Translations under genes and position numbers: made by a program
Notes under the pieces: model-generated
Databases searched by the model: none
Told to the model about the DNA's origin: nothing
What the model saw: the letters and a program-made list of their open reading frames with translations, nothing else
Shown here: positions 14,705 to 53,069 of the stretch, piece after piece
Layout: each line of letters starts with the position of its first letter
Numbering within the stretch: position 1 is the stretch's first letter
Assembly: GCA_964106645.2 (NCBI GenBank)
Contig: OZ067045.1
Source: Podarcis pityusensis
Lineage: Eukaryota
Direction: 5' to 3' (one strand)
DNA: 64,000 nucleotides

Positions 14705-16281
14705 ACAATTCCTCTTTCAATACTGTTTGCACCTGCAAAAGGTTTGGCGTGGACAGACTGCTCTGCTTCCGATTGTCCTGTTGCTTCCTGCTGAAACCCT
14801 GTAACTTTTTATACCATCAATGTTCTGCTTTAATTTCTATTCTGCTTTTGCTGCACTATACTTTAGCACCAGAGTGAACCACCCTGTGATCTTCAGATGA
14901 AGGGCAGTATACAAATTTAATAAATAATAAAGAAGAATGCCATTCTAGACAGCAATAATGCAGTAACATTTGGGAAGCATCACTTAAAAACTAATGAAGT
15001 GGAATGATGTGCAGACTGTCCAGTTTTAACCCACCACTAATGCACTTTTATTGCATCAATGACATGTTGCAGAATACAGCTGCAAAAAAGCACCCGTCTG
15101 GAGGGGCCCTAAGTGCATTGGAATCTAGGCCCTGCGAATGAGCTGAAAGCAGCAGATACAACAGTACTGCTCGAGTTAAGGTGTGGTGCTCATCTGTCTC
15201 TGGAAGAGAGATGGGTAAAAGCCCTGTGTAAGAGTAGGGTATAAATATAATACTTTTTCCAGCTGCATTAGACTCCAGAGACTTTAAATTGTTCCTTTAA
15301 ATAGATAAACATGTACATAAGTCACACCAATATATATTGTCTGGTGTTCATAAAAAAGCACATAGGTAAAGAAAACTCCAAGAATAGTTAATATTTCACT
15401 GCCATAAACAGCAGTTATGTATCTCCATTTGCATAATGCTTCAGGCAAACGGTATGCCAGGAAACGTAGGCTTGATTTATCACAATTTCCAGCTTCTGCC
15501 ATACTGCCTACAGGAATAATTGTTAAGGCTATTTGCATAAAGTTTTATAGGAATACCATGCAACCTTTTCTTCAGGATGCACCTAGGTAGATGGAAGTCA
15601 AAATGAATTCAGAATACTGATCCAATACAGGTATTAACAAACACAGCTAACTTTCCCCTCTGATCCTTTAGGAATGCCGTATAATAACTCATGTTCCTAG
15701 CCTTATTATCCAACTCTTTTACATTATCTGTTAATTCTGAAACAGGATCTCTTATCAAGGCCAGTGATTGCAATTTGCCTCAGGTAGCAAATCTGCCCCC
15801 ATCCCCACCACTGCCAGTCTAGTTGTGCCACTGCCAGCCCCACCGCAGCTTCAACTGTACCACCATCGCTGCTGCCACAGTGCCCTTGCCCTCGCTGCTA
15901 ATGCTGCACCTTTGCCGCTGTGTCATGGTGACAGGACGGGTGAAACTGCAAGCAAGGGTGCAGTTGGGGGTGGCGGCAGCAAAAGAACACCCTGACTCTT
16001 ACTAATCAGTCCCCCCCCCCCCGAGCCACTTATTACTCCACCAAATCCTTTTGGGGTTTATCACTTCCTTAAACTTTTTTCCTCTTAAAATGATTGCATG
16101 GGCACATATGTAAATAAGCGCCAATCCAAAAGAATAATGTTCCAAAACTGCAGCTAGCAGGAGATGGGAGAATGTGTTAATCATCATAGGTATTGCCCAG
16201 TAGGTGATCACAAGTCACACCAAATGCATCTTCATTCATATGTCAGTTATCAGTTCGACTCCTTTTCTAAGGCCCCATCTG

Positions 16282-16284
<3 letters not shown>

Positions 16285-16322
<38 letters not shown>
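16285..16322. repeat. (TA)n microsatellite
   Basis: Direct reading. Confidence 0.95.
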
Positions 16323-16325
<3 letters not shown>

Positions 16326-16437
16326 CAGTATCATACCACTTTAAACAGTCATGGCTTCCCCCAAAGAATACTGGGAACTGTAGTTTGTTACAGGTGGTAA
16401 GAGTTTGCTGGGAAGAGGGATGGATGATTAAACCACT

Positions 16438-19400
16438 GATGGGAACCAGTGTTGTCGACTACATTTTACTGACGCCGGAGCTATTCTCAATTTCTACAAA
16501 AATGGAAGTGGCTGAATATTTTGGTGGTGACCACCTTCCACTGACTCTATTGTTAAACCTAATAGAGCCAATTTCAGTCCCCTCAAACTATAGAACCACG
16601 GTACAAAGCCACCCTGTATACAAAACAAAGAAATGGACAAGCCTCAGCTCCTCTCTTGCCCTGGACATACAAAAATCATTTGATATGTCTGCAGTTCCCT
16701 CTGACCCAATCCTGCCCGCTGATCAATACCGGAAATTACTTGATGCTTTCTCAACAACTTACATAACCACCGCCTCGCCTACTCACCAACGCCTCTTCTC
16801 TGAATCGCCTTGGTTTGACAAGGAATGTAAAGCCCTAAGAAGGCGAATTAGGAAAATGGTCAGAATCATCAAATTTTCCAACGACCCCCAAACCCGTGCA
16901 AAGCTCATAGATATTAAAAGGACATACAGAAACATGATTCATTGCAAGAAACAGCAGCACATCCTTGAGGCTTGGTCCACTCTTCGTTCGGCTGTAGAGA
17001 GGCATGACTCCCGCTCCTTCTGGCGCTTAGTTAGACCTTCGGCACCATTCAATCCAGCTACCCAGATTTCCGCTGATGAATGGATTGCCTACTATTCAAC
17101 CAGTTTCGCTTCTCCAAATCATCTTACAGATCTCCTTCAATCCCCGTCGGACCTCTGTTCCTGCTCTCTTAGTCCCACTTCATCAATAAACTTTACTTCA
17201 ACTCGCATTTTCAACATCATAATGTCAATGCGAAGGAATAAGGCCCCCGGCCCAGACATGGTCCCGTTGGACCTTTTCCTGTCTGATCCTCTTTGGTGGA
17301 GCGAACACCTGACTCCTGTATTCACCGCCATCTCCTCCGCCCTAGACATCCCCGACTCCTGGAGAGAAGCTATAATAGTTCCGATCTTCAAAGGCGGCCA
17401 GCCAAACATCCCTAGGAACTATCGCCCCATCAGTTTATTATCCATCCCGGGGAAAATATTTGCCGCTGTTTTACTGGAGGAACTTCTCTCATGGGTCCAG
17501 GAGAGGAACATTCTACCGCTAGAACAGATTGGTTTCCGAAAGTCAGCATCAACCATGGACCACTGTCTAACTCTCTATCACCTTGCCAGTAAATACACTG
17601 CAACAAGGCAAGGCCACCTATTTGCCGCTTTCATGGACCTGGAGGCCGCCTTTGATTCCATTCCTAGGCAGAGATTATGGTCCAAACTTGCCCATCTGGG
17701 AATTGATCCGCACCTCCTCTCCCTAATTATTTCCCTTTATTCAAACACCACAGCTCGCGTCCGAAGTGGTCCCAACGGCTCCCTCACTACTCCATTTCCA
17801 ACGGCCAAGGGCGTCCGACAAGGTTGTCTCTTGGCCCCTCTACTGTTTAATCTCTATCTTCATGATGCAATTTCCACTTTGAAGCTAGCATCTAAGTACC
17901 CTCCTCACTTAGCAGGCCACCCCGTTGCTTCCCTTTTCTATGCTGATGATGCCGTCATCTTATCCAGAACAGCTGCGGACCTAGCAAATGCAGTTAATGC
18001 ATTTATCGCCTATTGTAAGGCGGAAGCTCTTAATATTAATTATAAAAAATCGAAAGTCCTCCACTTCACTCGTTCCCGCAAACTCAAGTTGGAGCCGCTT
18101 AAGATCACAGGTGGCTACTTAGAAAAGGTAAAAGCCTTTAAATATCTAGGCTTAATTTTCACTTATAATCTCTCCTGGACCACCCATCTACAATCTGCCT
18201 TTCTCGCTGCAACCACGACCTCTAACGCCATTGTCCGATTTTACCACCAGAAGGGCGGCAAACACCTTCCAGCAGCAATTCAAATATTTAATGCCAAAGT
18301 TGTCCCTAAATTATTATATGGATGCGAAGTATGGACTACAGCAATATCAGGTAACTTGGACCGCCCACTTCATATGTTTCTGAGATCTCTTTCCGGCGTC
18401 CCGAGATGTGTCTCAGGTGCAGCCCTACGACTCGAGTTCGCCCAGCCCTCAATTGTTAAACGAGCATGGAGTCGAGCCATTTCCTACAGCTTCCACCTAT
18501 TAGCATCGGATGCTCGAATTAGAGGTGGTTTTTCCAATCTGATCCTAAGAGATATTCATAATTCCCCTTGGAAAACTACAATTAACCTCAAATTCCGCTC
18601 TCTTCTCAATTTGAATTGTAAAACTGTTCTTAACTTAGAGTGTATCAGCCCGGCGGCCCTACCTCCAATTAAAAAGAAACTACAGCAACTTGACTTCTCT
18701 AACACAGCTTCCTATGCAAGAGGGCCGTGTTCAGGCCTAGCCCTAGCTATTCCACCCCCTGAAGGGATCCCTCTATACTGCTTCACAATTTCTTCGGAGG
18801 CTAAGCGAAGGGCCTTTACCTGTGCCCGTCTCAACTGTTTTCCTACAGCAGTTCTGTCGGGTCGTTATTCCAGAGTTCCCATCGCAAATAGAACATGCAC
18901 CTGTAACAACACGGCCCTGGAGACTATGGAACATGTAATGCTCTTCTGTCCTAACTGGACAGATGAAAGATCTCGGTTTTTAACTCCCCTCGTGAATAAG
19001 CTTCATCTCCCAATCCAGCCTTGGATAGTGTCCCTCCTTTTGCAGGATTCTGATTGTTGGATTACCGAGATGACAGCTAACTTCCTGCTTAGTGTGATGA
19101 AGAGGAAAGCGGCACTAACTTCTTCCTTAACACCACAGCTGCAGTCGATACGCCGCACAATCGAACGAAGTTCCAAGTAGTCTTATTGTACAAGGACAAT
19201 GGAGTTAGGATAAATCTGAGGAGCTGAAGGACCCTTTAACGGTCCTCCTCCAGCTTCAGCAGTTTTTTTTGTTTGTTTGTTTCTGTACTATCTGTTGCTC
19301 AATGTTTTAAATCCCCTGTCGCTTTAGTAACCCCCCCTTTCCCCCCCTCTTTCTTTAAGTATTCGCCCAGGAAGATATCTACCTTTACCTCCCCACCCCC

Positions 19401-34138: not shown

Positions 34139-35704
34139 GGTGTGTGATTCCTCAGCTGGAGTAGGCTTGGAACAGGTGAGGGGCACGTGCCTCATCAAGC
34201 CCAGATGCTGCAGTCAAAAGGGAAGCAGACCTAAGGTAATCACTGGTAGCCTTCTCCTCCATGAATCTGCCACATCTCTTTTAACACCATCCAAGTTGGT
34301 GGCCATCACTATGAAACAAATCGAGCCCACACTGTTTGTATGTTTTGCTCAATCAAGGAAAATCAGCTTTTTCCTTCTTCTGCATTACTACAGTGCTGAG
34401 CCTTAAAATCACAATTTCCATACAGCTGGAGGGTGCAATAAAAATGCTTTTAAATTTGTTCTGTCATAAACCCCACATTAAGCATCAAGCAAAGCCAGGG
34501 TGTATAATTGATCATTAGAAAAAATAAATTAATTTCGGTCCTTGGCAAACCAACAAGACGAGCCGCGCATATCCAAAACGTTCAAAAGAGATATTTACAT
34601 CTAGCCAGGGATCCCAAGGAGTTCTACTTACTGCTCAGCAGGTAGAGAAACTGTAGGCTAGTAGCAGCCAGTGTTGTGGGGCAGAGCCAAGGAGCCACCC
34701 TCCTCCTGACACCAGTGGTGAGTCTGCTTACCTAGGCAGCACTGGAGTGGGGCAGGGAACCAGGGGGGTTGGGCCTGTGAAGGCACACTGGCAGAGCCAA
34801 TCTGATTACCCTCTGCTGCACCCATGCAACCCTGACCTTACTGATGCCCTGCCCTTGCCCCATTGAGTAAACCAGCAGTGGTGCGGGTGTTGAGAGGGTG
34901 GGTCTCTATCTCAGCTAGGGATGTTAGATAATTCCACTGAGAAGGAAAATGTGGGCCATATTGGCTTATTCATAACTGAGTATGCCCCCCCGCTCCTGTC
35001 CACCATTTGCATAGCATTTCCTTTGCACTGAAATGAATGGGGTGGAGTTCTGGAAGTTTCAGGGGCAGCGGTTTCCAAATATGTTAAAGCCCCAACACTT
35101 CTTTTTTTACAACAATCATTCGTAGGCCAAGGCGGTAGTGCCAAAATATGACTATGCAACATCTGTGCTTCGGGGTGGGTGGAAATGGCATGGGGCTGCC
35201 CAGAGGGGCTTAACTGAAAGCAAAATCTGGGGGTTTGTTCAATTCTTTGAAGAGGGGAGCTAGCAGGCTAAGAAAAGGAGGGAGACAAGGATGGAAGCAC
35301 AACAGTGAGATGGAAGAAGACTGGGAGCCATTGTTAGGCGCTGGGGTGAGGGGATAGGCATCCACTTGTCAAGAGAATGAAATACATGAAGAGTGTGACA
35401 TTTCACTTCAACATTTTTGACATTTTATTTTGAATACGGTTGGCGTGAAGTATGTCCATGACAGGAGACTTCTTTTACAGCAAATGTCAAAAGAGATGTC
35501 AAATTTGTATTGGGGGGCGGGGGGAGGAAATGTCAACCTCTTAATTCTTATTCCTTTTCTCTTTCCAATAGGCTTTTTTTTTTTTCCTGGAGCAGCCCCG
35601 GATTTAAACCATAAGTAACATGACTTGGAACAGGTGAGATGGAGCTACCTCAATAAGATTGCGAAGAACCTCAGAATCAGATAAGGATGACAATAAATTG
35701 CTTT

Positions 35705-37851
35705 CGGACTTCCGGGGTGGCGCCATCGGCAATGGCGGACTCCCTCTGATCTGGAGGGACTAGCTCCACGCGAAACGGGTCTTTTCCGCTACGGCGAAGC
35801 GGGGACCCTTTCAAAAATCACAGGCGGATGAAGCCTGTGACCATGGGACTCGGCAGGCACCTTTAGCGCCCCCCCAACCCGCAAAAGAACCCACTAACGG
35901 GCTCCGGAGCGAAGAGGGGGAAGTGGCGCGGTGCTGAGAGTCAACTGCTTCTTCCGTGGAGCGAAGCCGCACAGCCGTTGCCGGAGAGCGCTGCCTTTTT
36001 CCTGGGACAATTTGGCTTCTAAAATAATCACCCGTGAGTACTTAAATTTCGGACAATTGGACTTTAAATAAGGACTTGCGAGCAGAAAGGAAAATTGGAC
36101 TTAAAAGTTTACCTCAATTTGGCACTGAAACGGGAAGGTCTAAACAGGAAGTTAGCCTTCCGTTTCTTTGTAGATAGATTAAAGCAAAGACATGGCAAAC
36201 TAGAGCTCAGAAAATCGCTTGTAAAGGATTAACTTTCATCATTTAAAATTGTTGAACCCCCCTTCAGAAGCAGGAGAAGAGGGGGGATTTTTTCGGACTG
36301 TTTAAACCTGCAGAAGTGAGTGTAAAGTAAAGTAACTTTCCACCGTCCTGATCCTGGAGCGGGGTGTCAGGACTGACGTTTTTTGAAGCTCATTGACCAG
36401 AGACAAACGTTTTTGACAGATAGCTATAAGAAGAGAAACATTGATTCCATTGTTCCCCTTCGCATTTTAAAGGAACAAATATTGACAAAATATCTGAAAA
36501 AGGAAACATTGTTGTTAGACTTGTCTTTAAAAGAAAGAACAAATAGAAGTTTTCCCCCTAGAGGGAGACTGTGAAACTGTAACCAACTCCAGGGAGCTTG
36601 CAGCTGTTATAGATTACAATCATGGGAATAGACTTCTGACCTTGCAGGACAATGTTTTCAGAAGCTCTGTTGCGTGCTTTCTGTAAAAGAAATGCCCTAC
36701 TGGAACAGCTACATGAGAAGACGGACTTGATGACTGATGCGATCAGAAATTTTGAACAGGCAGTGGGAAATTATATGGAGCCCACCCAGGAATTAAATCA
36801 GGAGTGTGCCCTGACAGAACAGATGAGGGAAGAGGATGTTGCTGAATCTTGGGCACCAGAGATGAAGGGAGCTGTGGCCCAGCAGGAACATGAGCTTTTG
36901 GACTTGACAAATGAACTTGGAAAAAGCCAGATTTGGAAAGATAAAGTTTGGTCTGGTTTGGAAATGGGGGGTTGGATAGACCCCCCTATGCAGGGATGTT
37001 TGGACCTTTCAAGTCTGGCAATGGGCCGTGAGATGTTTGGGGTTGTGGGGGCTCTTAATTTTGGAGGGATTTTGAAACATGTTCTTAAATACCACATTGA
37101 GTTTAGTGTGGACTATGGAAAAGGGGCTGATTTGTTGAGAAGGGTCAAAAACATTGTTAAGCTGGAGTTCCCACGAGTGAAAGGAGCAGGAGACAAAGGA
37201 AAATACAGTTATAAATATGAAGAAGAGCTGCGGAAGGGACATGGAAGAGACTTAAGGGCCTCGGATACAAGGTTACCAGGTTAATGCGCTAGATCGATGG
37301 GATAATAAGGACTGACAAAACCCGGGACCAGGAGGAAGGGACGCTGGATGAAGATTGGATTGTTTTTATTTCTTTTTTTTACTACTAGGATTGTTTTATA
37401 AAATTGATGAATGTTAGAAAAATGTTGGAACAAAATTACTTGGCTTTAGCAAAAATGTTTAAAGAATTATGTAAGAATATTATGGTTATGAGAAGTTGGT
37501 AAAAATAAGATTTAAGTTTTAAGCTTTAAGGTGCTTTATAGTAAGATAAGATTAAAATAGATTAAGGTAATGTAATGACAGAATATTATGAAATATGGAA
37601 AGGATTTGCTGCGACAATTAACAACTAGGATACAAAAAAAGGGAGGAGGAGGAGGTCAAAGAAAGAAGGTAATGACAGTTGAGGATTTGAGAATGATGGA
37701 TTTGTTTTTGAGTGTTTGTGGTGTATTTTTGTTTTTTGAATTTGTATTGTTTGATGTGGTTTGTTTTTTCTTTGTTTTTTCTTTCTCTTTTTCTGCTTTG
37801 TTCTCTTTTGTAATTCTAAAAATTTTCAATAAATATCATTTAAAAAAAAAA
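35705..37851 (+). mobile_element. Apparently full-length non-autonomous L1-dependent retroelement (HAL1-like), 2147 bp
   Basis: Perfect 16-bp TSD gacaataaattgcttt (35689-35704, 37852-37867); CpG-rich 5' end GGACTTCCGGGGTGGCGCCATCGGCAATGGCGG; AATAAA and poly-A; no RT motifs. Confidence 0.85.
36652..37284 (+). CDS. 210-aa ORF of the non-autonomous element; N-terminal half coiled-coil-like, possibly an L1 ORF1p derivative
   Basis: Longest ORF in the element, ATG-initiated on the sense strand, with E/Q/L-rich helical composition; no domain recognised with certainty. Confidence 0.45.
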   Translation: MFSEALLRAFCKRNALLEQLHEKTDLMTDAIRNFEQAVGNYMEPTQELNQECALTEQMREEDVAESWAPEMKGAVAQQEHELLDLTNELGKSQIWKDKVWSGLEMGGWIDPPMQGCLDLSSLAMGREMFGVVGALNFGGILKHVLKYHIEFSVDYGKGADLLRRVKNIVKLEFPRVKGAGDKGKYSYKYEEELRKGHGRDLRASDTRLPG

Positions 37852-37983
37852 GACAATAAATTGCTTTGAGATTTAAGGGTGTCTCAGAGTGGCTTACAAT
37901 ATAAGAACAGGCAAAACAAGAAACATTAAAATCAAAATAAGGACAAGAATAAAGCAATAACTTAAAATGCTCATCCATAAATA

Positions 37984-38209
37984 AAGTGGTACCTCGGGTT
38001 ACAGGTGCTTCAGGTTACAGACTCCGCTAACCCAAAAATAGTACCTTGGGTTAAGAACTTTGCTTCAGGATGGGAACAGAAATTCTGCGGCAGCAGCGTG
38101 GCGGCAGCGGGAGGCCCCATTAGCTAAAGTGGTACCTCGGGTTAAGAACAGTTTCAGGTTAAGAACGGACCTCCAGAAAGAATTGAGTACTTAACTCGAG
38201 GTGCCACTG
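37984..38209. mobile_element. Tc1/mariner (Tigger/pogo-like) MITE, second copy
   Basis: Near-identical to 27444-27669; TA flanks. Confidence 0.88.
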
Positions 38210-50974: not shown

Positions 50975-51752
50975 GTTGTTGTTCAGTCGTGTCCGACTCT
51001 TCGTGACCCCATGGACCAGAGCACGCCAGGCACTCCTGTCTTCCACTGCCTCCCGCAGTTTGGTCAAACTCATGTTCGTAGCTTCGAGAACACTGTCCAA
51101 CCATCTCGTCCTCTGTCGTCCCCTTCTCCTTGTGCCCTAAATCTTTCCCAATATCAGGGTCTTTTCCAGGGAGTCTTCTCTTCTCATGAGGTTGCCAAAG
51201 TATTGGAGCCTCAGCTTCAGGATCTGTCCTTCCAGTGAGCACTCAGGGCTAATTTCCGTAAGAATGGATAGGTTTGATATTCTTGCAGTCCATGGGACTC
51301 TCAAGAGTCTCCTCCAGCACCATAATTCAAAAGCATCCATTCTTCGGTGATCAGCCTTCTTTATGGTCCAGCTCTCACTTCCATACATCACTACTGGGAA
51401 AACCATAGCTTTAACTATGTGGACCTTTGTTGGCAAGGTGATGTCTCTGCTTTTTAAGATGCCTTCTAGGTTTGTCATTGCTTTTCTCCCAAGAAGCAGG
51501 CGTCTTTTAATTTCGTGACTGCTGTCACCATCTGCAGTGATCATGGAGCCCAAGAAAGTAAAATCTCTCACTGCTTCCATTTCTTCCCCTTCTATTTGCC
51601 AGGAGGTTATGGGCCCAGTGGCCATGATCTTCGTTTTTTTGATGTTGAGCTTCAGACCATATTTTGCACTCTTCTCTTTCACCCTCATTAAAAGGTTCTT
51701 TAATTCCTCCTCACTTTCTGCCATCAAGGTTGTGTCATCTGCATATCTGAGG
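50975..51752 (-). mobile_element. 5'-truncated RTE-BovB LINE
   Basis: LRYADDTTLMAESEEELK...FELWCWRRLLRVPWTAR; (CAA)n tail; 11-bp TSD ctgctggaaat (50964-50974, 51753-51763); premature TAG at 51139-51137. Confidence 0.95.
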
Positions 51753-53069
51753 CTGCTGGAAATAGGGTGCTGGAATAGATGCCCCACTTGGGCGCAGTTT
51801 AGTCATTTTTTTTGATTCTGGACTTCAGTGCTTTTAGCGAGGTATAGTCAGTATCAAACAACATAAGGCTCAGTGCCTACCAGTCCAGCGCCATCCCCAA
51901 CCTGGTGCCCTCTGGACAAGGGCCACAGCTCAGGGGTAGAGTGTCTGTTTGCAAGCAGAAGACCTCAAGTTCAATCTCCAGGTAGGGTTGGGAGAGTTTC
52001 CTGCCTGAAATCCTGCGGAGCCGCTGCTGTGCAGTGTAGACAGCACTAAGATAGCTGGGCCAGTAGTATAAGGGAGCTTCCTATGTTCCTATCTGGAGGC
52101 AGCCTTAGGTTTGTCTACAAGCAGTATGGGGTGGGGGATGTTTTACCTGTGAACTCCTGGTGCCTAGGGATAGCAGGTGATGATCTCAAGGGATCATCTC
52201 ACACCTCAAAAGATGAGGACTAATATCTTAATCGTCCTGTGCGAAATATACTTCCTTTTTAAATAAAGACATGCCACAGCTCAGGCCAATGTGGGGCCCT
52301 GCCATCTGCCTTTAAAGGTAGCCTTGAAGTTTAAATCTCAAAGTGCAGGGACATGTTCCAGTTGCTCAGTCGTGAAGCAAAGGCATTCTGTAGATGTTCA
52401 GCATTACTTTGCTCTGTTTTATGAAACATCTTAGGCTTTCTTTAAAAAGGGGGCCTAGCAACATGTCTTTTTGTAGCCAAAGGAGTGAGCCAAAGAGAGA
52501 GACCAGCAAGTGACAGTCTCTGCTTTCAACACGCCCCCAAAACAGGATACAAAATGTGGTTTTCTTGGTGCAAAGAAAAGTTTTTGAGTATCACAGAGGA
52601 GAAGAGCAGCTTGGCAGGGCTCAATAGCTGCAGCGTTCTGCTAGGAGAAGTCATTTAATAGAAGAAAGCCCTTTACCTACTTTCTCATTCCTTGGACCTG
52701 ACCAAATAGCTCTTGTTTCTGAACAGTGCCCTCAGGTGGCTGAAAACATAACCAGAAAAAGAAGGCTGAGAAAAATAGAGATGAACTCCACTGAGGGTGG
52801 AGAATTATATGCATGCTCTAAAATTGTGCCTGAAGCTGTAACATGTAACCATCTTGCTAAAGCTAAGCAGGCCATGTACACCCACCTCTGGAGGAAAGGT
52901 GGGAGATATATGTAATAAAATAAAGTTATCAATATAAATGCATAATTTTAACAAAAGGCAGTTTTTAAGAGAAAGTATTTTGATTCCCTGAGAAACAAGC
53001 TAAATAGTTTCCTATGGAATCTAGAGATTAACACATTCCAGGTTCTACAGTAGATTTAAAAAGCACTGG

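Follow-up and report, generated by a model that had tools for sequence, protein, structure and literature searches.

A lacertid half-L1 (HAL1) family that appears to keep a shortened ORF1 protein under selection and to have taken its promoter head from an autonomous L1

Background

A 2.15-kb insertion with one open reading frame (ORF) and no replication enzymes of its own raises two questions: how it moves, and why it keeps the ORF. We analysed such an insertion in a 64,000-nucleotide stretch of Podarcis pityusensis DNA (the window), which an earlier note had described as a full-length, HAL1-like parasite of L1 with a novel ORF and an internal promoter of its own. HAL1 elements are ORF1-only derivatives of L1, with several origins in mammals in the accessible parts of the literature (PMC5753468, PMC13756887, PMC3627910, PMC2241872, PMC8535693). 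Our best overall explanation, to which we give a probability of about 0.8, is that the insertion belongs to a HAL1 family of lacertid lizards that borrows the ORF2 protein (ORF2p) of L1, has a shortened ORF1 protein (ORF1p) under selection and carries a captured promoter head.

Structure of the insertion

The features are listed below with the evidence for each in parentheses; L1-X is the autonomous L1 family to which the element is compared throughout.

35689..35704, + strand: 5' TSD, 16 bp, perfect (direct sequence)
35705..36050, + strand: CpG-rich promoter head, apparently captured from an autonomous L1-X subfamily (identity to L1 heads)
35708-35715, start of the head: ETS-like ACTTCCGG (direct sequence)
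35721-35726 and 35732-35737: YY1-like cores, CGCCAT and ATGGCG, respectively (direct sequence)
36005..36068, + strand: duplicated block, two 18-nt copies 46 nt apart (repeat search and head alignments)
36051..36651, + strand: remaining 5'UTR, from the L1-X ancestor (HAL1 clade 100/100 for the region)
36652..37284, + strand: deleted ORF1p, 210 aa, ATG start (blastp E 1e-13 to L206/L207 ORF1)
37285..37417, + strand: non-coding remnant of the last approximately 45 codons of L1-X ORF2 (blastn/tblastx to L191, L206, L207, L209 and L213)
37418..37841, + strand: AT-rich 3'UTR, homologous to the L1-X 3'UTR (64-72% identity to L1-X 3' ends)
37828-37833, + strand: AATAAA (direct sequence)
37842..37851, + strand: poly(A) tail, 10 nt (direct sequence)
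37852..37867, + strand: 3' TSD, 16 bp (direct sequence)

The perfect TSD, poly(A) tail, CpG-rich 5' end and single 210-aa ORF, with no endonuclease (EN) or reverse transcriptase (RT), can all be seen directly. The ends, leader and ORF of the earlier note therefore stand as described; it had overlooked the 3' remnant of ORF2, the loss within the RRM and the captured head. An ORF scan of the element found no frame for EN or RT, and it thus lacks the ORF2 of an autonomous L1, which encodes both. The observed/expected CpG ratio is 0.8-1.0 in the first 450 nt and far lower in most later intervals. Five ATGs lie upstream of the ORF (one in L207, an L1-X copy), and the codons for approximately 48 N-terminal ORF1 residues are missing from the 36051..36651 region. 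The junction of the ORF1-to-ORF2 deletion falls approximately at the ORF stop (37284); the idea that the end of the ORF is ORF2 read in another frame proved wrong, because this end is the ORF1 CTD and the ORF2 remnant begins at about the stop. The closest named protein to the ORF is a hypothetical Podarcis lilfordi protein (85%).

Just past the 3' side of the insertion lie short repeats with GGTACC cores (37982-38166), which probably belong to a small flanking DNA element of non-autonomous type. Two other features of the window are unrelated to HAL1, namely an open LINE RT-type frame of 969 codons (16271-19180, + strand) and an RT fragment (about 51140-51800, - strand), which we take to resemble RTE/BovB.

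A large and dispersed family

Long TSDs, poly(A) tails, a bias toward pyrimidines before the nick and 5' inversions are marks of L1-type target-primed reverse transcription. The window copy is a recent full-length insertion of a large, dispersed HAL1 family in which these marks recur: 81 of 99 unique full-length copies have an exact TSD of their own (9-22 bp, median 17 bp), the target site of full-length copies has T or C at -1 in 82% and is A-rich past the nick, and 5' inversions are present (for example, in L090 and L340). A 29-mer taken from the ORF matches the genome exactly at 623 sites (control, 0), a lower bound because it misses copies with mutations and probably also subfamilies D and E. 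All 40 genomic DNA matches that were scored have 94-100% identity, and 39 are essentially full length. Among the first 40 matches to the 29-mer on contig C1, the 5' end is present in 34 (a figure conditional on the copy reaching approximately 620 nt from the 3' end) and an ORF of at least 185 aa in 25, with lengths of 191-210 aa that indicate many subfamilies.

We built majority sequences for subfamilies A, B, E, D and C. Subfamily A, which includes the window copy, encodes 210 aa, and its copies lie a median of 1.3% from the majority; B encodes 196 aa, E 210 aa (copies 3.2% from the majority) and D 191 aa (2.8%). Subfamily C consists of four near-identical copies (L121-L124) within 85 kb (G000:C2:125.62-125.71 Mb), probably a segmental duplication, and each copy carries an uninterrupted 196-aa ORF with 98-99% identity to Logan protein P0003. 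A one-heptad unit of the ORF is present one to three times, and relatives also occur in sequence from other organisms. The copy count and consensus sequences (hundreds of copies of the same structure, in several subfamilies) bear out the multicopy, full-length, non-autonomous element with L1-type ends that had been proposed.

Descent from an autonomous L1

An RT search of the genome found several L1 families, one of which, L1-X, shares its ends with the element: identity is 68-81% over the 5' approximately 800 nt and 64-72% over the last approximately 550 nt, where the match starts inside the last approximately 45 ORF2 codons. The ORF aligns end to end with the ORF1 of L1-X copies L206 and L207 (25-26% identity, E 1e-13) with scores of 142-143, as compared with shuffle maxima of 55-60 and scores of 35-47 against the ORF1s of three other L1 families. 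L206 is intact, with both ORFs open, and ORF1 and ORF2 overlap in L1-X. Subfamily D, at 50% amino acid identity to L1-X ORF1, bridges the other HAL1s and L1-X. In the protein tree the nine HAL1 proteins fall into a single clade (100/100), attached by a long stem in the vicinity of L206/L207. This stem is about ten times the length of the L207 branch.

By these alignments the element consists of the L1-X 5'UTR, a shortened ORF1, the last approximately 45 codons of ORF2 and the 3'UTR, in other words a HAL1 (half-L1), and the family was born from a clade-1 L1 by loss of nearly all of ORF2, with a single origin for all subfamilies. Its ends are L1-derived, ORF1p is all that it encodes, it has amplified as a unit and its ORF1 coding capacity has been maintained by selection; TSD length, target bias and 5' inversions are indirect hallmarks of mobilisation in trans. 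Judged from the sequences, HAL1 identity and mobilisation by the ORF2p of L1 are very probable. The HAL1-like reading of the earlier note is thus upheld, both ends and ORF being homologous to an autonomous L1 of the same genome, and its 'novel ORF' has to be given up: the ORF is the internally deleted, fast-evolving ORF1p of the clade-1 L1-X.

Candidate drivers include L1-X, through its intact copy L206, and many L1 copies of other families with an open ORF2 of 1241 or 1261 codons and identical scores (for example, L183, L188 and L189). The latter copies suggest very young autonomous families and have no detectable ends in common with the HAL1 element.

Domains kept and lost in the shortened ORF1p

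A profile of ten lizard ORF1s matches human ORF1p (PDB 2YKP; E 2e-10), as does the predicted model of the L207 ORF1 (Foldseek E 3e-10), in which the coiled coil spans residues 50-157, the RRM 161-251 and the CTD 255-317. The protein, in the earlier note not obviously a canonical ORF1p, descends from L1-X ORF1, the model of which folds like 2YKP. Mapped from the L1-X model by alignment, the 210-aa ORF contains the coiled coil (aa about 1-94), the first half of the RRM (about 95-139) and then the CTD, and it starts at what is an internal Met (about 48) of L1-X. A deletion of 42-44 aa at about 37068/37069 has removed the second half of the RRM in subfamilies A, B, C and E; D has lost the whole RRM and kept the full CTD; and no HAL1 lineage examined has the complete RRM of a canonical L1 ORF1p. 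The CTD of the 210-aa ORF has a 12-aa deletion and no acidic tail, pieces of the CTD are also missing in P0014/P0019, and the distal coiled coil has acquired prolines and deletions.

Segments of the coiled coil and CTD can be aligned in all five genomic subfamilies, and a C-terminal motif is shared with three distant proteins, two of which share the RRM junction too. An arginine that is invariant in the CTD of the L1 alignment (R261 of L207) and aligns with human ARREW is replaced in nine of nine HAL1 proteins; we take the arginine of the human motif to be important for RNA binding.

The model of the HAL1 protein itself has a pLDDT of 39 (from a 14-row alignment) and rises above 50 only in the N-terminal helix (2-65), and a score of 0.00 for the protein modelled in complex with a pair of L1-X ORF1 cores, with neither alignments nor folded controls, speaks neither for nor against co-assembly. 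An ESM Atlas search with the ORF was uninformative (best 0.81), and a PF02994 profile search of the genome gave no match. Pfam returned HAUS5 alone for the ORF, under the cut-off (E 0.05); because it does poorly on true lizard ORF1s as well (best Transposase_22, E 0.013, in one of ten), a missing Pfam match is no sign of novelty.

Selection on the ORF

Conservation of the ORF was measured by dN/dS, a check that the earlier note had proposed. Between subfamily majority ORFs the ratio is 0.23-0.41 (kappa 1) or 0.32-0.65 (kappa 3), values that rest on majority sequences, and 19 of 20 bootstrap intervals lie under 1 (the other touches 1.00); it is 0.14-0.28 among three L1-X ORF1s and 0.5-1.1 between HAL1 and L1-X at kappa 3. 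The synonymous share is 31% among private post-insertion mutations (131/421) versus 49-52% between subfamilies (Fisher p 0.001-0.035, for three pairs that are not independent). Of the variable sites among A, B and E, 54 of 117 are synonymous, as compared with approximately 29% expected from the UTR spectrum, and the excess is confined to frame +0 and the antisense frame sharing its third positions, and is spread across all three regions (27:36, 11:13 and 16:14). The ORF indels that distinguish A, B and E are 9, 21 and 54 nt long and preserve the frame (nucleotide alignments to D are too gapped to count), whereas most UTR indels would break it. Open frames extend across subfamilies that are 47-85% identical in protein, although intactness is biased upward in B and E, whose copies came from a protein search. 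Divergence of the ORF equals that of the UTRs (A-E 0.125 versus 0.112/0.113), indicating either that the UTRs are constrained as well or that constraint on the protein is slight.

On these comparisons the HAL1 ORF appears to be under relaxed yet real purifying selection, weaker than in L1-X, and the protein sequence quite probably matters. Bao and Jurka reportedly found in 2010 that HAL1 ORF1p evolves faster than L1 ORF1p. Master-lineage substitutions are strand-biased (on the sense strand, C>T 0.16 and T>C 0.14 versus 0.07 per base for G>A and A>G), more strongly so than post-insertion mutations, and do not as such show a one-sided erosion from C to T.

A captured promoter head

The 5'UTR has two histories. 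In a tree of the first approximately 330 nt, subfamilies A, B, C and E group with L213-type L1s and D with L207; over the rest of the 5'UTR all HAL1s form one clade. In midpoint-rooted trees of 17 selected rows, the head rejects monophyly of the HAL1s (p-AU 4e-91, a test prompted by the earlier head tree) and the body supports it at 100/100. Heads could be found in 26 of 30 L213-type loci, 29 of which carry the ORF2 start; these 26 heads are 89-98.5% identical to that of subfamily E (nine at 97% or more), as compared with 60-62% for the body, and the E head is up to 98.5% identical to the heads of L299-L315. The head of the window copy is 90.1% identical to that of L313 versus 79.8% to that of L207.

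Because the E head is nested in L1 heads and the HAL1 body lies nearer to L207, we infer that capture ran from L1 to HAL1. Identity to L313 stops around nt 350, at a duplicated block (36005/36051 in the window) that is likely the scar of a junction near 36050. The first approximately 350 nt of HAL1 thus appear to have given way to the corresponding head from an autonomous L1 subfamily, likely by a template switch during reverse transcription, and the captured head would co-express parasite and driver. The 5' motif of the element matches the 5' consensus published for lizard clade-1 L1 (PMC5381506), so that the ETS/YY1-like head, once read as the element's own promoter, is an L1 promoter head, in which the two motifs are putative factor sites. 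In the accessible parts of their paper, Boissinot and Sookdeo (2016; PMC5381506) report no 5'UTR replacement in lizard clade-1 families save L1_AC9, whereas the present non-autonomous family evidently exchanged its head for that of an autonomous element. In subfamily A the captured head has drifted by 10%, whereas donor copies differ from E by 2-3%; like the long HAL1 stem in the protein tree, this suggests quicker turnover in the parasite than in the L1 from which it came.

Proposed mechanism and the role of the protein

We propose that HAL1 RNA would be transcribed by Pol II from the L1 head and translated into the short ORF1p, which, while on its own RNA, would join L1 ORF1p or itself via the coiled coil; ORF2p would be borrowed from an autonomous L1 and captured at the poly(A), and the copy would be made by target-primed reverse transcription at Y|NARA-like sites. 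For transcription and reverse transcription the proposal relies on L1 biology together with the marks left by insertion. The proposed role of the protein is drawn from the parts kept and lost, from the proposal that HAL1, HeT-A and Ag-Sponge proteins multimerise with the protein of their driver (PMC5786205), and from the report that truncated human ORF1p acts in trans through its N-terminus and coiled coil (PMC5605252). Contigs of four putative RNA runs cover most of the element, a coverage that is no measure of expression. Donor- and acceptor-like motifs raised the idea of a 5'UTR intron, which we rejected: there was no GT-AG joint among the joints listed, and genomic copies retain the full 5'UTR.

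By sequence and analogy, the shortened ORF1p probably assists the entry of its own RNA into L1 particles, and does so by its coiled coil and not by RNA chaperoning, although as the role of the protein we give coiled-coil co-assembly somewhat less than an even chance. The N-terminal approximately 48 residues are absent, yet the human trans effect requires them together with the coiled coil; and a second L1-headed family without a long ORF is also mobile, indicating that an ORF is not obligatory for such elements here. This second family (L197:6081-7785, 1.7 kb, with relatives at L220:4770-6476 and L203:3-666) has no long ORF in the three forward frames of the L197 insert, which carries a clade-1 L1 head 65-70% identical to the HAL1 element, a poly-A and a TSD of approximately 18 bp. 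The insert sits in ORF2 of another L1 family, and a full-length relative is 74% identical.

The main rival to co-assembly holds that translation alone counts: an open frame would hold the RNA on ribosomes near nascent ORF2p and safe from decay, with the protein a near-inert relic. Such an account sits well with the repeated loss of core domains (half of the RRM, the whole RRM in D, and CTD pieces in P0014/P0019), the poor model of the HAL1 protein, the equal divergence of ORF and UTRs, and the strong in-frame indel signal. It does not explain a synonymous excess greater than the mutation-spectrum and frame controls allow, in all three regions, nor the heptad-sized repeats and the C-terminal motif retained in very distant proteins, and we hold it possible, if on the unlikely side. 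Packaging in cis, in which the protein would bind its own RNA through the CTD and a homo-oligomeric coiled coil, is the standard model for mammalian HAL1 (PMC2241872, PMC3627910), and segments of both are kept in all five genomic subfamilies; with the RRM half or wholly gone, the invariant CTD arginine replaced in all nine proteins and an acidic net charge (27 K+R versus 34 D+E), we judge it unlikely here. A one-off internal deletion of an ordinary L1 is very improbable, and so is a neutral element of SINE type that has an open frame merely through youth: the small divergence of subfamily A copies (approximately 1.3%) makes openness alone uninformative, but there are hundreds of copies of one structure, frames open across deep subfamilies and relatives in sequence from other organisms, and the copy number and open frames already refute both ideas.

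An extension of the co-assembly proposal would have a long-lived reptile HAL1 lineage turn ORF1p, an RNA chaperone in origin, into a coiled-coil adaptor or decoy. Without its RRM the protein would enter the ORF1p oligomers of the driver, load HAL1 RNA into L1 particles and poison those of the driver, and the lineage would re-capture the driver's promoter head so that the two remain co-expressed; we regard this as doubtful.

Comparison with known systems

As far as the accessible parts of the mammalian papers extend, mammalian HAL1s are likewise L1 minus ORF2, with promoter, ORF1-derived frame, 3' end and poly(A) kept; they too are multicopy, hold their coding capacity over time and mostly retain the 5' end. 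The lizard family is of independent origin. Human HAL1b ORF1p is drawn with coiled coil, RRM and CTD (PMC7586669), whereas the lizard protein has 191-210 aa and an RRM half or wholly deleted; rat HAL1 is 98% like an active L1 over 2.6 kb, whereas lizard HAL1 is 25-33% identical in protein to its L1, and its one closely matching part is the re-captured head. Lizard clade-1 L1s (PMC5381506) share with HAL1 and L1-X the 5' terminal motif, a 5'UTR of approximately 1 kb and, in the parent, an ORF1 of coiled coil, RRM and CTD; HAL1 differs in having no ORF2. HeT-A (Jockey clade) and Ag-Sponge (CR1 clade) also encode an ORF1-type protein alone (PMC5786205), but they belong to other LINE clades and are of unrelated origin, and the lizard copies are dispersed along contigs with no sign of telomere targeting. 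Truncated human ORF1ps (PMC5605252) resemble the HAL1 protein in being coiled-coil fragments without intact downstream domains; their sources are defunct L1 copies, and their action, which depends on the N-terminus, suppresses L1. The lizard fragment, by contrast, has lost the approximately 48 N-terminal residues and belongs to a family that propagates itself and maintains it. Searches of the openly accessible literature brought up no account of a reptile HAL1, an RRM-less HAL1 or head capture by a HAL1, and 'HAL1' is absent from the main texts of PMC5381506 and PMC5203782.

Implications

The HAL1 type itself is known; the lacertid variant combines a degraded-RRM ORF1p, apparently under selection, with a captured promoter head. 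HAL1 ORFs are currently annotated as hypothetical host proteins in Podarcis entries. HAL1 sequence also lies within the predicted host proteins P0024 (Podarcis lilfordi CAI7935470.1) and P0001, which are likely annotation artefacts.

HAL1s have been described from mammals, where the reason for keeping ORF1 is still argued from sequence alone. The lizard family is useful here, being young, abundant and mostly full length, with an intact parent L1 in the same genome, and it offers a natural deletion series under selection (half an RRM, no RRM, a shortened CTD) that makes it testable whether ORF1p acts in cis via RNA binding, via oligomerisation or through mere translation. It also documents cleanly, down to the junction, how a parasite can acquire its promoter end from an autonomous L1 subfamily, and does so where 5'UTR replacement is reported to be rare. 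If the adaptor or decoy reading were true, the family would be a natural experiment that parts ORF1p oligomerisation from RNA binding, and it could help to explain the low numbers of full-length L1s in lizards.
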